A stretch of 64,000 nucleotides of DNA. Origin: Nitrosopumilaceae archaeon (GTDB lineage: Archaea; Thermoproteota; Nitrososphaeria; Nitrososphaerales; Nitrosopumilaceae). The stretch spans positions 448,001 to 512,000 of the forward strand of contig CBDBMG010000003.1 in NCBI GenBank assembly GCA_965207375.1, written 5' to 3'. Position numbers and translations under genes: made by a program. Position 1 is the first letter of the stretch; each line of letters starts with the position of its first letter. Shown here one piece after another: positions 9,489 to 43,611 of the stretch. Under the pieces are notes generated by a model that saw only the letters and a program-made list of their open reading frames with translations, did not search any database and was not told the origin of the DNA.

Positions 9489-9575
9489 GGGCCTCTTTGA
9501 GGCCTTGCAAAAATTCTATATAGCATACCATTTTTTGTGTAATTCACTTTGTCAAGGTTTAGTCTCTTCTTTTAT
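9489..9575 (-). ncRNA. Variable-segment mini-gene, subfamily A; TATA box disrupted by an insertion
   Basis: Variable segment 9515-9551 (37 nt) between the CCTTGA linker and ATTTTTGCAAGGCCTCAAAGAGGCC. The upstream motif is displaced to about 10680-10692. Confidence 0.55.
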
Positions 9576-10669
9576 CATTAAGTACGGTAGTACTTAATAG
9601 TAGGATTGGTAAAAAATTGTATGGCTTCGGGAAAATTTAGCGCTTTAAAAATCAACCTTGCAATAGACTTTACCCGAAAAAACCAGCTGGAATGCATTGG
9701 TAAGGCTGTAATGATGCTGTACCTTGGTTAAACGAAACGACAAGTCGAATATTTCGACCTACAGCCAACTTTGAAAATTTCGAAATCCACCTGTATTTCG
9801 TCTGACAGCCAGCCAGCCAGCCTGCCAGCCAGCCAGCCTGCCGTAAGACCGGGTTGCGCTAGGTGTAGGGCTCCAGAAATTTCACACAATAAAGGTAATG
9901 GCGGCGCATTTACGAAAATATTATTCCGAAGACGATTTACCCACTGCGCCATGGCGATTCCCTTTATCCTTCATTCCTTTCCTTGTTCTTCTTTATTCCT
10001 TAGCAAGGTGCGAATTTCACCGAAGGTGACGATAGCCTGTAACTGCTTCTGCTTATTGCGTCACACAAAAACCTGACTTGCACGTGATATAATTAGTTAC
10101 AGTGGCACGATGTTTTAGCGTGTACTTTATTACATCGTGAACTTCGAGATTATAGCCTTGGACAAATAGCTTTTGCTGTTTTTCGAGCGTTATATTTACT
10201 ATCACACAGCTGCTTTGCCATGTCAGCGCGTTGTTAACAAGCGCCTGTAAACAAGCATAATTATTACGTAAGCGCCTGTAACATTTTGTGCGCCTGCTAA
10301 AAGATTATTGAATGCTTAGCATGTATAAAAAGTAAACAAACTAGAATGATAAAAAATTAAAAAATTAAAAAGTAAGTAGGGATTGAACTTTGGATTCAAT
10401 AGTGCTACAAAAAGTAAGGAAACAAGGAATAAGATTTTGGGATGAGAGAACATTCTGGCATGAGATAATTTATAAAAGTTTAATCCCTACTTTTGGCAAA
10501 CCTACTGGAAGTGAGCCAAAAGTAGGGATTAAACTTTTATAAATTATCTCATGCCAGAATGTTCTCTCGTCCCAAAATCTTATTCCTTGTTTCCTTACTT
10601 TTTGTAGCACTATTGAATCCAAAGTTCAATCCCTACTTACTTTTTAAATTTTTAATTTTTTATCATTCT
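9574..10669 (+). mobile_element. Fold-back element family 1, copy 1
   Basis: 5' short hairpin TTAAGTAC-GGTA-GTACTTAA, short (GCCA)n, and a near-perfect terminal palindrome at 10343-10669. Confidence 0.8.
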
Positions 10670-11601
10670 TATCTCTACATATTGTGGGTTTTCATTTTTA
10701 CAATGTTTTACTCACAGCTACATTTAGTAAACTTATTAATAGTGGGTAGAACTTCAAACATTGATAATGTAAGGTGATGGCCACTGTTGCCCATATAAGA
10801 GATTTGATTGTGGGTTTAAGTTTTACATAATTTTTGTACTACCAAGTGATGAACTTTGGAAAAGTAATGTTTTGTTCCCTCCAAATTGCCTCTCAAATTT
10901 CAGTAAAAGTTTATAATCACCAGATCTAATAAAGTACAGCTCACATCAACCTTTTCCTTCTCTGATATCACCATCAAGCCAAACTTCGCTTTGCAAGACT
11001 TGACTCAAGGTTATTATTTCAAAATTATAAAACCCAGTAGCTAACCTGATGATTAATCAAGCACTACTCTCAGCATTTCCACTTATGTTGAGTAATCGGG
11101 TGCCTGGCAGGTGTTAGCCAATCCCGTGGCTAATCCACAGTAGCTGACATCACATATCACGCAAATTACTAATGGCTCAGATATTGCTAATGGATGATGA
11201 AATCGACTACCGTACTTTTAGTAGTGATTTCAAGTGTAAGCATCTTAGTACTAAGAAACTTGTCTCTTCGTAACACCGGCATACCATTTTCTAATTGCAG
11301 TAACAAGTCACATAGTGCACCACCTTATGTTTGTGTGTTGATAGCTAGCTGGCACTAATTGTTATTCAGTGAGCCTATCAGTTGTGTTGTTGATTTATGT
11401 GTTGATCACGACACCGACATCCCTACCATTAGAAATTTACAGCTACATACTCCGGATTTGCGCCTAGTGCAGGATTGCCGGTTTGGGGGGTCTAGAGACA
11501 AATTCTGTACTTGGCTTAGCCCCGTGCTATATTGTCTCTTGTACTGTATTTACCATACACACTTGCAGTGGTGCTTTAACTAATACAGATGGCATAGTTA
11601 T

Positions 11602-11719
11602 AGGCCCCTTGAGGTCTTCCAAAAATTTTAATTTAGCATGTTAACCAATGATACTTGTTAAGATCAAGGTTGCTCCAGCTTTTCTTTTATAAACACATGT
11701 TATATTTGATTATGGGTTT
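11602..11719 (-). ncRNA. Variable-segment mini-gene, subfamily B
   Basis: Minus: AAACCCATAATCAAAT..TATAAAAGAAAAGCTGGAGCAACCTTGA-[37 nt, 11627-11663]-ATTTTTGGAAGACCTCAAGGGGCCT. Confidence 0.55.
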
Positions 11720-12095
11720 GAATATTTTAATTCACTTCACAATATAGCTAGCCATTGTAAACCATTCATCCATAACTTTCAGATAGCGCTATTGAGAGTT
11801 TCTAATTAACACATTATACATACACATTATACATACACCTCCACTTTAAACATATCAGTGTTGCTCATATGTATTTGATTGTGACTTCAAGTATTTAAAT
11901 TGTGGTACAGGGTGGCCTACTGTATTTTTGCGGACTGGACTCAAACAGGTGCAGAATATGGAATAACGACACTTTTCAGGATTTTTCATTTATTCTCTAA
12001 AAATTTTAGTTTCCAAGCAGTCTTCCATACTAGTAACCAAACTTACACACATGCACATAGCTGTTAAACACAAACCGAATTTAATTGTGACATCC

Positions 12096-40547: not shown

Positions 40548-41556
40548 ATCATTAAGTATGGTAGTACTTAATAGTAGGGATTGGCGGGAAATCGTATGGT
40601 TTCCAGAAAAATTCGAGCTTTAAAAATTTACCTTGCAATAGACTTTACCCGAAAAACCGGCTGGAATGCATTGGTAAGGCTGAAATGATGCTGTACCTTG
40701 GTTAAACGAAGCAACAAGTTGAATATTTCGATCTACAGCCAACTTTGAAAATTTCGAAATTCACCTGTATTTCGTCTGCCAGCAAGCCAGCCATAAGACC
40801 GGGTTGCGCTAGGTGTAGGGCTCCAGAAATTTCACACGATAAAGGTAATGGCGGCGGATTTACGAAAATGTTGTTCCGAGGACGATTTACTCACTGCACC
40901 ATGGCGATTCCTTTTATCCTTCATTCCCTTCCTTGTTCCTCTATATTCCTTTAGCAAGGTGCGAATCTCACCAAAGGTGACAATAGCCTGTAACGGCTAC
41001 TACTTATTACATTACACAAAAGCCTGGCTTGTACGTGATATAATCAGTTTAATACAGTGGCACAATCGTGAAAGATTATAGCCTTGGACAAATAGCTTTT
41101 GTGTTTTTCGAGCATTATTTGCTATCACACTGCTATCACACAGCTGCTTTGTCATGTAAGTGTGTTGTTAACAAGCGCCTGTAAACAAGCATAATTATTA
41201 CGTAAGTGCCTGTAACATTTTGTGAACTTGCTGAAAGATTATCATGAATGCTTAGCATGTATAAAAAGCAAACAAACTAGAATGATAAAAAATTAAAAAT
41301 TCAAATGGTAAGTAGGGATTGAATTCAATAGTGCTACAAAAAGTAAGGAAACAAGGAATAAGATTTTGGGACGAGAGAACATTCTGGCATGAGATAATTT
41401 ATAAAAGTTAATCCCTACTTTGGCAAACCTACTACTGAAGTGAGCCAAAAGTAGGGATTAAACTAGGGATAAAGGTTGATTATTAAAGCACAAAATTTCC
41501 GGAAGCCATACGATTTCCCACCGATCCCTACTATTCAGCACACTGTACTTAATGAT
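40548..41556 (+). mobile_element. Fold-back element family 1, copy 3
   Basis: Homologous body; the hairpin is truncated after the loop and followed by an inverted copy of the element's left end. Confidence 0.8.
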
Positions 41557-42414
41557 AAAAATTACTTAAAATTTGGTTACACTACAAAATCACTAAAATT
41601 TGTCTGCACTAGTAATATCTATATAGTCTGTGGTAAGCTATTTTGGTAGGTAAGTTTTGACCAATCTGTTAATTTTGCCAATAATTTTAATCCCTCCAAT
41701 TAGTGATGGGAGGTATTTCAATTATTCAATATGGGTAAGGTATGAGTTCATACTGAACATCATTTTATATACGTAATGTATTCCATTATTGTAATGTAAA
41801 AATCATACTATTATGCAGTGTAGATTTTATATTAATATGGGTGTAAAAATACATACAAAGATTTTAAGCAGACTACTAGCATAAACTAGTTGTGTGCAGT
41901 CATGTAAATGTCATGACCTGATTGATGACCGACTTTAAAACTGGTTAATCAGTTTCATAACGGGTTGACCAATTTTGAAATGGTATAACTATATTATTAG
42001 AGTATCCTTTTAAAGGGATAGCTATAGGTATTGTACAGTAGTAACTAGTCTTGTGGGGCCACACCCTCTTCTTTGCATGTTGACTAGCATTAAACGCCCT
42101 GCCTAAAGATGTAAGGTAACAGGAAAGCTGACCAACTGACGGCTAGTGCAGGCTTGGCTGAACCATACAGTATTTTTCATCAGACAAATCAAAGCTGACT
42201 GTCCTATCACATTGATTTCATCAGTTACAAAATGAATTCACCAATATTAAACTGGATCAATGGTCAATAACTAATGACCCAATTTCACTTTAAAACAAAT
42301 ATTTAGCCAGTTTTAAAACCAGATGGCACTGTAACAAAAATATTACAATGGCGATAATTTACTATACCGTGGAATGAACTAATTACCATGGTAACAATTG
42401 TTTTGATCATTGTG

Positions 42415-42531
42415 GGCCCTTTTCAGGCCTTGCAAAAATTCAATATGTTTACAACCACCATGTATATGGCCATTTAGTCAAGGTTTATCCTCTTCTTTTA
42501 TATCTCAACGTGACATTTAATTGTGGGTTTT
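42415..42531 (-). ncRNA. Variable-segment mini-gene, subfamily A
   Basis: Variable segment 42440-42477 (38 nt); TATA at 42496-42502. Confidence 0.55.
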
Positions 42532-43491
42532 GATTTTACTCACAGCTACATTTAGTAAACTTATTAAGACTGCATAGAACCTCAAATATTGATAATGTAG
42601 GGTAATGATCAGTGTTGCCTATATAAGATATTTGATTGTGGGTTTAAGTTTTAAGATATGTACATCATTTTTGTAGTCCCAAGTGATAAACTTTAGAAAT
42701 TCATATTTTGTGTGATTGTGGGTTTAAGTTTTAAGATATGTACATCATTTTTGTAGTCCCAAGTGATTCCCTCCAAATTGCCTCTCAAATTTCACTAAAA
42801 GCTTATAATCACCAGATCTAATAAAGTACAGCTCACATCAACCTTTTCCTTCTCTGATATCACCGCCAAGCCAAACTTCGCTTTGCAAGACTCGACTCCA
42901 GGTTATTATTTCAAAATTATAAAACCCAGCAGCTAACCTGATGATTAATCAAGCACTACTCTCAGCATTTCCACTTATGTTGAGTAATCGGGTGCCTGGC
43001 AGGTGTTAGCCAATCCCGTGGCTAATCCACAGTAGCTGACATCACATATCACGCAAATTACTAATGGCTCAGATATTGCTAATGGATGATGAAATCGACT
43101 ACCGTACTTTTAGTAGTGATTTCAAGTGTAAGCATCTTAGTACTAAGAAACTTGTCTCTTCGTAACACCGGCATACCATTTTCTAATTGCAGTAACAAGT
43201 CACATAGTGCACCACCTTATGTTTGTGTGTTGATAGCTAGCTGGCACTAATTATTATTCAGTGAGCCTACCAGTTGTGTTGTTGATTTATGTGTTGATCA
43301 CGACACTGACATCCCTACCATTAGAAATTTACAGCTACATACTCCGGATTTGCGCCTAGTGCAGGATTGCCAGTTTGGGGGTCTAGAGACAAATTCTGCA
43401 CTTGGCTTAGCCCCGTGCTATATTGTCTCTTGTCCTGTATTTACCATACACACTTGCAGTGGTGCTTTAACTAATAGAGATGGCATGGTTA

Positions 43492-43611
43492 AGGCCCCTT
43501 GAGGTCTTCCAAAAATTTTAATTTAGCATGTTAACCAATGATACTTGTTAAGATCAAGGTTACTCCAGCTTTTCTTTTATAAACACACATGTTATATTTG
43601 ATTATGGGTTT
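43492..43611 (-). ncRNA. Variable-segment mini-gene, subfamily B (recent duplicate of 11602-11719)
   Basis: Variable segment 43517-43553 is identical to 11627-11663. Confidence 0.55.

Follow-up and report, generated by a model that had tools for sequence, protein, structure and literature searches.

The Sm-class small nuclear RNAs (snRNAs) form a handful of conserved housekeeping RNAs, namely U1, U2, U4, U5, U7, U11, U12, the spliced-leader (SL) RNAs and SmY. U7 and the engineered U7 SmOPT are short RNAs of this class with a single-stranded, pairing 5' arm, an Sm site behind the arm, a 3' terminal hairpin and an snRNA-type promoter, the engineered SmOPT using the canonical form of the Sm site. 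We describe here a family of small cassettes sharing this layout, which are found in a 64,000-nt stretch of DNA (hereinafter the window: positions 448,001 to 512,000 of contig CBDBMG010000003.1, assembly GCA_965207375.1, filed as a Nitrosopumilaceae archaeon). A cassette comprises a proximal sequence element (PSE), a TATA box, a linker, a 5' arm that differs between copies, an Sm-type site and a GC stem-loop. Most likely, these cassettes are real snRNA genes of the Sm class, U7-like in build and partly decayed, and together form a family that has not been described before.

Comparison with the closest described systems brings out both the likeness and the distinctness of the cassettes. Each genome has a single U7 RNA, whose arm is a conserved anti-histone sequence and whose Sm site is non-canonical, whereas the cassettes number in dozens, have unrelated arms and carry the canonical site. 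The SmY RNAs of nematodes resemble them in belonging to the Sm class, in having several clustered gene copies and in their length of about 70-90 nt, and they too have a 3' hairpin, together with AAUUUUUGG, but they possess a conserved 5' stem-loop, in contrast to the unstructured and variable cassette arms. The Herpesvirus saimiri HSURs are, in the part of the source available (PMC6763288), Sm-class RNAs whose single-stranded 5' regions base-pair with other RNAs, as proposed for the cassette RNAs; however, they are viral, only seven in number and conserved in sequence rather than a diversified cellular family. A family that keeps promoter, Sm site and hairpin but has a differing single-stranded arm in each gene would be new: no description of such genes was found in the literature searched, and a search directed at sponges gave only a report on leaders.

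The window lies on one (C4) of the four contigs (C1-C4) of a 4.3-Mb assembly filed as a prokaryote and scored as 99.95% complete as such; yet 2.14 of the 4.3 Mb (C2-C4) are eukaryotic and of animal type. Long ORFs cover 83% of C1 (2.16 Mb) as against 13-22% of C2-C4 (2.14 Mb together), and C2-C4 contain LTR-retrotransposon and integrase genes, microsatellites and satellites. Since the nearest Atlas clusters of two proteins from C2-C4 lie among animals, the most frequent phylum being Mollusca for one protein and Chordata for the second, the window is, by the evidence of these relatives, animal-type host DNA binned together with a microbe. Because the eukaryotic contigs with the locus have ended up in the bin of a prokaryotic reference genome, eukaryotic annotation would miss the cassettes. 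The window itself is a mosaic of segmental duplications, 72-93% identical, and transposon pieces. C3 and C4 overlap partly as haplotig-like copies; these are 99.5-99.7% identical throughout and hence uninformative on arm conservation, so that we dropped them as evidence for it.

An earlier note on this DNA had named 14 cassette sites in four subfamilies, and we recovered the cassette at all 14, with an Sm-like site in 13 of them and one cut-off copy (at 3800). The 16-mer PSE motif AAACCCAYAATYAAAT has 20 matches with at most two mismatches in the window against 0.45 expected, a number reached in none of 100 shuffles. Subfamily A has seven copies (9489, 17090, 17396, 23482, 28864 on the plus strand, 37736 and 42415), B has two (11602 and 43492), C consists of the copy at 35806 and the stump at 3800, and D has three copies (19953, 25943 and 40004), all of which lack the PSE. 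The further claim that PSE, TATA, Sm site and hairpin belong to every copy stood only in part: all four elements, with a stable hairpin, are intact in four of the 13 (17396, 23482, 28864 and 42415), but the PSE is missing from the 9489 copy and the three D copies, three copies (17090, 35806 and 37736) have no hairpin left, and in both B copies it is weak.

The genome-wide motif scan that had been proposed was run on the assembly, and it revealed 37 cassettes with 33 different arms in C2-C4 (2.14 Mb). An nhmmer model of the promoter module gave 42 matches, distributed as none on C1, two on C2, 13 on C3 and 27 on C4; an Sm-like site follows within 110 nt in 33 of these 42, where chance would give about 1.3 as estimated from 1216 background Sm-like sites. 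Further subfamilies are seen only outside the window, namely E and E2 (C4 554-589 kb), F (C4 37-40 kb and 692-697 kb) and G (C3). The cassette pattern had no matches in public genome contigs or in viral contigs, and metagenome contigs were scanned only for a U6-plus-PSE pattern.

A profile of the 33 unique cassettes aligned on the TATA box points to a stereotyped snRNA-type promoter, as the earlier note had held. It reads, in order, a-AAACCCACAAT (the PSE), a spacer of exactly 19 nt with a weak TAYRWGT midway, TATA(A/T)AAG, a 22-nt linker (tAAAyNttNAnaaa), an unconserved stretch and (u)a.AAUUUUUG(G/C)AAG. These motifs and their exact spacings are common to subfamilies that otherwise share nothing. 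Conservation ends at T1+29 of the TATA, and the PSE AAACCCACAAT ends 48 nt before this boundary between conserved and variable sequence, in keeping with the 50-55 nt or so by which a PSE precedes the start in SNAPc-dependent snRNA genes. As a proxy test we examined U6 genes in public collections with ACCCAYAAT before the TATA, the U6 core being part of the search pattern. This pattern was absent from the public genome contigs, but metagenome contigs gave 12 loci with ACCCAYAAT 21-27 nt before the TATA, all 12 of which are Rfam U6 genes, belonging to at least four sequence types. In one metagenome contig from another eukaryote (L024), Rfam-confirmed U6 and U5 genes lie about 300 nt apart and have the PSE AACCCACAAT in common. 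It precedes the U5 start by about 52 nt, and that gene has no TATA; in the U6 gene it is placed 24 nt before the TATA (54 nt before U6), whose first T is 29 nt before the U6 +1. By this arrangement, the 10-mer AACCCACAAT, which the PSE of the cassettes contains as well, serves as a genuine PSE of both polymerase classes in at least one eukaryote other than the host. Applied to the cassettes, the TATA-to-start rule of L024 puts the predicted +1 at the conserved/variable boundary, where the arm begins; the start that had been predicted at the beginning of the variable segment thus agrees with the point at which conservation stops.

Behind the arm, the 33 unique cassettes have a near-invariant Sm-type site, (A/U)AUUUU(U)G(G/C), which fits RAU4-6GR, with a hairpin directly 3' of it, in line with the site and GC stem-loop that had been reported. 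We folded the 32 nt after the Sm-like site for 29 unique tails and for 1216 genomic control sites with the same U-run motif: 20 of the 29 tails fold at -6 kcal/mol or below as against 9.9% of the controls (Mann-Whitney p = 1e-10), and relative to shuffles the tails have a mean z of -2.3. The fold is kept by at least eight different stem sequences, which vary in both sequence and length, for instance GGCCT/AGGCC, GGCTTC/GAAGCC, GGCCTCTTC/GAAGAAGGCC, GGTTCTTC/GGAAGGACC, GGTTTTCTCTA/TAGAGAAACC and GGCCTATAGC/GCTATAAGGGCC. Because the fold persists while the sequence changes, the hairpin is best explained as being transcribed, in which case the polymerase would have to continue past the U-run. Behind the hairpin stand a YAYRW motif and, in subfamilies A, F and G, an A-rich box (AAAACRAG-like) 10-18 nt downstream, sequences that may or may not represent a 3' box for Integrator-dependent end formation.

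The arms, counted from the predicted start at T1+29, behave quite differently from this scaffold. The 27 non-redundant arms genome-wide are 29-46 nt long (mean 34.8), and for the window copies the range is 31-35 nt in subfamily A and 12-36 nt in D; hence, of the fixed length of 36-40 nt claimed earlier, the rough constancy holds and the fixed value does not. They are AT-rich like the genome, and no k-mer or motif is shared among the 27. On folding, the arms prove unstructured (mean z -0.14, n = 29), and a 5' stem-loop within them was rejected. About a third of the arms start with AUG, but the ATG-started frames end at differing places, and peptide coding was accordingly rejected.

The hypervariability of the arms within conserved scaffolds was upheld in several comparisons. 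Within subfamilies, arm identity is 0.46-0.59, which is the level of shuffled arms (0.48 +/- 0.05), as against 0.73-0.88 for the promoter and 0.79-0.95 for the Sm site and hairpin. For the far flanks, the blastn alignments obtained show identities of 70-100%, mostly 80-96%; several pairs gave no alignment. In all six duplicated block pairs, which are 82-89% identical overall, the 33-nt arm window falls within the lowest 0.7-4.2% of all windows. Five genes of subfamily E are near-identical over some 120 nt upstream of the arm and some 70 nt downstream of it, and yet their arms, of 27-43 nt, are unrelated. The borders of these E-type arms are sharp, being formed by AATCTTWACAA(A) and (A)AAAAUUUUUGG, and the arm lengths differ by up to 16 nt. 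Conversely, the two B copies have arms identical at 35 of 35 positions and six differences elsewhere in the 145-nt core (95.9% identical). A simple mutational hot spot does not explain the arms, because their lengths differ and those of the B copies are identical.

Taken together, these features make it probable that the cassettes are, or were, real Sm-class-type snRNA genes. The more specific reading that we favour is that the cassettes are snRNA-like genes of an animal genome, each under its own SNAPc-type promoter, which form a multigene family and whose arms set base-pairing specificity; it strikes us as evenly poised between right and wrong. Under this reading Pol II would transcribe the cassette and the 3' end would form just beyond the hairpin, giving a predicted transcript of about 65-85 nt that consists of an unstructured, gene-specific arm, the canonical Sm site AAUUUUUG(G/C)AAG and the adjoining 3' terminal hairpin. 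A canonical Sm ring would assemble on the Sm site and hairpin, and the free 5' arm would base-pair with nuclear RNA targets, candidates for which are pre-mRNA processing sites, transposon transcripts and viral transcripts, each gene representing a different specificity. That the arms act as base-pairing guides at all is a tentative proposal, to which we give somewhat less than even weight. The family would grow by segmental duplication with frequent decay, the promoter and 3' modules staying near-identical within a subfamily and the arms unrelated. Such an arm pattern would need either selection for differing arms against duplication and gene conversion or an arm-replacement mechanism; new specificities might thus arise by arm replacement or diversifying selection inside the conserved promoter/Sm/hairpin scaffold.

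At its widest, the proposal is of a diversified, genome-encoded repertoire of antisense guide snRNPs in an animal nucleus, with dozens to perhaps thousands of members, each directing its 30-45-nt arm to a different RNA; we regard this as possible but on the doubtful side. If true, the Sm-snRNP chassis would be a natural general carrier of antisense specificities, a role so far known from a laboratory tool and a few viral RNAs. The engineered U7-SmOPT would then have a natural counterpart, from which rules for the design of guide snRNAs could be taken, and programmable, RNA-guided regulation would gain a new class. Should the arms have targets, RNA regulation in the nucleus or the defence of the genome would acquire an additional layer in an animal lineage.

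Several observations weigh against this reading. A scan of the window with Rfam gathering thresholds gave no matches, and the Rfam comparison that had been suggested produced no family at threshold in the window or the E cluster. Likewise, E-value scans of the window, of 20 other PSE-TATA loci and of the E cluster returned only microsatellite and inverted-repeat 'miRNA' noise, two sub-threshold SmY matches and one HDV-like ribozyme. The search for arm complementarity proposed in the earlier note came out negative: blastn-short of all arms against C2-C4 and C1 (4.3 Mb) gave no convincing target, the best complements being 18/18 and 20/21 in AT-rich sequence. The PSE or a stable hairpin is missing in nine of the 13 window copies, and about half of the window copies look decayed or dead by their sequence. 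The E2 branch (C4 559105, 581310 and 584796) lacks the PSE and has conserved arms, with zero or one difference in 30, in flanks of 82-92% identity. The host's own U1, U2, U5, U6 and U7 genes, whose promoters would have allowed a comparison with the PSE, were not found in the assembly, in searches that each scored at most the first 150 candidates and in which the controls were also silent, so that absence is not established. RNAalifold on a sequence-only (MAFFT) alignment of 20 tails found no consensus pairs, the register slipping by at least one base, and the evidence for the hairpin therefore rests on single-sequence folding against controls. In four mapped runs, which consist of contigs and are uninformative on expression, the Sm site, arm and hairpin of the 42415 copy (bin 42320-42459) are nearly without depth, at 0 in three runs and 0.28 in the run X8. 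Finally, L024 has a TATA on its Pol III gene (U6) but not on its Pol II gene (U5). If the cassettes followed suit, their PSE and TATA would imply transcription by Pol III, for which the T5 run within the 'Sm site' should be a terminator.

The mapped runs were examined over 39520-43700, where they mainly cover a high-copy element at 40500-41480. The run X8 has a low depth, of 45 over 42460-42599 and of 15-26 over 43300-43700, stretches that include the 42415 promoter and the 43492 cassette, and the D copy at 40004 has some coverage in three runs (39940-40079). The E2 copies have a pyrimidine-rich arm and a (GTAT)n microsatellite in the expected position of the PSE, while a fourth copy (576119) has a PSE and a different arm. 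These copies may be what is left of a conventional snRNA with a single function, for instance U7.

In vertebrates, as in L024 (U6 with TATA, U5 without), a PSE combined with a TATA denotes Pol III. Accordingly, one rival explanation takes the cassettes as Pol III type-3, U6-like mini-genes that stop in the T4-T7 run and yield RNAs of about 35-50 nt (the arm plus a U-tail), possibly precursors of small RNAs. A T-run follows every arm, as would be needed, and U6-type genes likewise have PSE and TATA at fixed spacing, although the gap is 19 nt in the cassettes and 21-27 nt in the 12 U6 loci. Within the arms TTTT is mildly depleted, at 4 of 27 against 8.0 in shuffles (p = 0.03), but this depletion is gone when measured against the genomic background (14.8% of arms versus 21.5% of random 35-mers), and the intact gene at C4 588644 has TTTT within its arm. 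The model for such a system would be the type-I piRNA (21U-RNA) mini-genes of C. elegans, which, in the portions of the sources available, are many tiny, clustered, single-promoter units that draw on components of SNAPc and yield a single short RNA per promoter, the RNA being variable and unit-specific from the initiation site (PMC6317315, PMC6436959, PMC7917550). Their precursors, however, are about 28 nt long, are without Sm site or hairpin and feed a Piwi protein, and a Ruby motif stands in place of the PSE-TATA pair. Nor is there a U bias at the first base of the cassette arms (T in 12 of 37). A short Pol III product would also leave out three elements that lie beyond the T-run, namely the conserved G(G/C)AAG, the hairpin with its conserved fold and the conserved box behind it, in contrast to a U6-type gene ending at its T-run; a hairpin fold kept with changing sequence speaks for a role at the RNA level. 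We consider this explanation rather unlikely.

A second rival, which we also rate as improbable, would see in the cassettes a housekeeping Sm-class RNA (e.g. a diverged U7/SmY-like one) or a selfish or decaying repeat, the arm being a spacer without sequence function that varies through relaxed constraint and transcription-linked mutation. The decay of many copies would suit this, as would the genome-like, AT-rich arms without a shared motif, the want of arm targets in 4.3 Mb, the mosaic of duplications and transposon pieces in which the cassettes sit and one A pair whose arms are as similar (87%) as their flanks (86%). However, neutral drift cannot yield unrelated arms of 27-43 nt between copies with 90-96% identical flanks, and a tenfold hot spot is hard to reconcile with the identical B arms. 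The motifs and exact spacings kept across otherwise unrelated subfamilies speak for functional selection rather than for a transposon end. The idea of an ordinary transposon end, raised in the earlier note as what might undo its case, is contradicted by our internal comparison: the subfamilies share motifs and spacing only, not flanks, and the copies lie in segmental duplications of varying extent. The Rfam models of U7 and SmY, too, remain below threshold on the cassettes. Two cassettes reach 22.5 and 19.6 bits with the SmY model (RF01844) against a gathering threshold of 39, which is the closest Rfam signal. The U7 model (RF00066) has no match at E <= 0.001 in the assembly, where 150 of about 1399 candidates were scored, and none in the E-value scans of the window and the E cluster.

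The third rival, that of SL RNA genes, would make the arm a leader exon trans-spliced to mRNAs, with a donor just upstream of the Sm site and very diverse leaders. The SL RNAs of Ciona, Hydra, ctenophores, flatworms and nematodes are indeed, so far as the source material extends, small Sm-class RNAs whose genes exist in multiple, often clustered copies and whose 5' part, of 16-46 nt, precedes an Sm site with a stem-loop behind it. Short SL RNAs are similar to the cassettes in size and layout, the part of one report available giving leaders of 16-46 nt, SL RNAs of 46-107 nt and the Sm sites AAUUUUGA or AGCUUUGG (PMC7986045). Partial accounts further describe ctenophore leaders of 35-48 nt from 718 dispersed loci (PMC8527503) and glass-sponge leaders of about 37 bp with many variants, which those authors put down to sequencing error (PMC10282587). 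In the four intact A-type copies GTA occurs 6-12 nt before the Sm site. Against this, SL RNAs have a leader conserved within the species (in the portion available on Hormiphora, at more than 90%; PMC8527503) that is followed by a GU donor, whereas the cassette arms share no leader, their identity being at the shuffled level. GT is present in 25 of 27 arms as against 23.4 expected from shuffles, i.e. at chance level; donor-like GTRWR is found in 12 of 27 as against 8.5 expected (p = 0.10); and the GT at the homologous position has been lost in three of eight A copies. Two genes (C4 554074 and 579599) have an intact promoter, an Sm site and a strong hairpin, yet no GT. The AUG-starting arms would add upstream start codons to every recipient mRNA, and extra genomic copies of arms, such as leader-bearing retrocopies, were found nowhere in C2-C4. 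On these grounds, a typical SL RNA was rejected, and an SL family with highly diverse leaders seems to us quite improbable.

Identity with U7 or SmY was dismissed, in the former case because the model does not match among the candidates scored and the Sm site of the cassettes is canonical, and in the latter because the scores are sub-threshold and the cassettes have no 5' stem. No histone genes were found in C2-C4; the only match resembling a histone stem-loop (C2 200416-200461, minus strand; L036) scores 30.6 bits against a gathering threshold of 34 and lies directly after a non-histone ORF.

Turning to the individual copies, with positions counted from the first nucleotide of the window, the four intact ones are all of the A-type. 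The 17396 copy (17397-17513, minus strand) has its PSE at 17498-17513 (one mismatch), TATAAAA at 17477-17483, the arm at 17423-17454, the Sm site UAUUUUUGC at 17414-17422 and the hairpin, with the stem GGCTTC/GAAGCC, at 17397-17411. The 23482 copy (23483-23597, minus strand) is composed of a PSE at 23582-23597, TATAAAA at 23561-23567, an arm at 23508-23538, an Sm site at 23499-23507 and a hairpin at 23483-23496. The sole copy on the plus strand (28865-28984) runs from the PSE (28865-28880) through TATAAAA (28895-28901), the arm (28924-28958) and the Sm site (28959-28967) to the hairpin (28970-28984). At 42415-42530 (minus strand) the spacer is 2 nt shorter, with the PSE at 42515-42530, TATAAAA at 42496-42502, the arm at 42441-42473, the Sm site at 42432-42440 and the hairpin at 42415-42429.

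The remaining A-type copies, all on the minus strand, are damaged. The one at 9490-9576 is without a PSE and probably promoter-dead; it keeps a TATA-like GATAAAA (9570-9576), an arm (9516-9547), an Sm site (9507-9515) and a hairpin (9490-9504, -10.1 kcal/mol). That at 17104-17202 is likely a pseudogene that has lost its hairpin (0 kcal/mol), with PSE 17187-17202, TATA 17166-17172, arm 17113-17143 and Sm site 17104-17112. At 37754-37853 the PSE (37838-37853), TATAAAA (37817-37823), arm (37763-37794) and Sm site (37754-37762) are present and the hairpin is degenerate (0 kcal/mol).

Both B-type copies are on the minus strand and have a weak hairpin. One (11591-11719) has its PSE at 11704-11719, TATA at 11685-11691, arm at 11628-11662 and Sm site at 11619-11627; the other (43491-43611), with which it shares its arm, has the PSE at 43596-43611, TATA at 43575-43581, arm at 43518-43552, Sm site at 43509-43517 and hairpin at 43491-43508. 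The C-type copy at 35787-35914 (minus strand) did not keep its hairpin and consists of PSE 35899-35914, TATA 35878-35884, arm 35825-35855 and Sm site 35816-35824. The truncated C-type cassette at 3810-3876 (minus strand) has a PSE (3861-3876) and TATAAAA (3840-3846); its homology to the 35806 copy stops within the arm, and it is without Sm site or hairpin.

The three D-type copies, again on the minus strand and without PSE, differ in the length of the arm. The first (19953-20044) has TATA 20038-20044, arm 19980-20015, Sm site 19971-19979 and hairpin 19953-19968. In the second (25943-26014) a short arm (25971-25985) lies between TATA 26008-26014 and the Sm site (25961-25970), with the hairpin at 25943-25958. 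The third (40005-40072) has a very short arm (40032-40043), with TATA 40066-40072, Sm site 40023-40031 and hairpin 40005-40020.

In addition, nine PSE-like matches in the window, either about 126 nt upstream of A units or solitary, have no correctly spaced TATA, and from their sequence they look like decayed C-type promoters. Such 16-mers, all on the minus strand, lie at 4853-4868 (likely a C-type promoter relic), 10802-10817, 17624-17639 (126 nt upstream of the PSE of the 17396 cassette), 23708-23723 (upstream of the 23482 cassette), 26542-26557 (one mismatch), 32463-32478 (where the expected downstream A-type cassette is missing), 37964-37979 (upstream of the 37736 cassette) and 42630-42645 (upstream of the 42415 cassette, with a further partial copy at 42710-42725).

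Beyond the window, clusters of three to four further PSE-N19-TATA promoters in both directions are seen at C2 250300-251300 (L003), C2 359.7-360.8 kb and 427 kb, and C4 777 kb and 858 kb. The small units behind the clusters of this type have no Rfam match, and one of the units is followed by a long perfect inverted repeat (L003 ~692-799) resembling a promoter-driven hairpin RNA. At C4 588492-588553 (L040 ~14990-15060), an E-type promoter with the first 9 nt of the arm is partly duplicated in tandem, directly upstream of a full gene. The arm of the cassette at C4 37233 has matches of 15-16 nt with at most one mismatch at C1 343926, 363607, 542015, 851129 and 1004546, in unrelated contexts, probably through chance or composition. 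HDV-like ribozymes often mark non-LTR retrotransposons; the HDV-like self-cleaving ribozyme of the E cluster (L039 19175-19245, plus strand, = C4 572674-572744) scores 48.7 bits against an Rfam gathering threshold of 44.

Two PSE-N19-TATA units with a cassette-like linker (C2 126179, i.e. L001 279-345, and C2 82971) are found in front of two IgGFc-binding-like genes, some 290 nt from the first long exon, and may drive either a small RNA or the gene. The IgGFc-binding-domain family (L001 708-2036 on C2) is greatly expanded, with several copies on C2; one such ORF has 381 relatives, and the 120 matches listed are 72-97% identical and are all metagenome proteins.

As for the rest of the window, no tRNAs were found in it. 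An ORF at 46298-46873 (plus strand), with 45543-46076 upstream of it, encodes an rva_4 integrase core domain (E = 5e-71) and is probably part of a mobile element; an ORF fragment at 24-479 (minus strand) is reverse-transcriptase-like. Long microsatellites occur at 21864-22502 (GCCA)160, 12095-12371 (CA)138, 19759-19916 (AC)79, 31673-31823 (AGC)50 and 39312-39499 (AC)n, and these give rise to spurious Rfam matches to sRNAs and miRNAs. A 9.4-kb satellite with a 48-nt unit occupies 51734-61094, where about 170-195 copies are arrayed with 91-94% matches.

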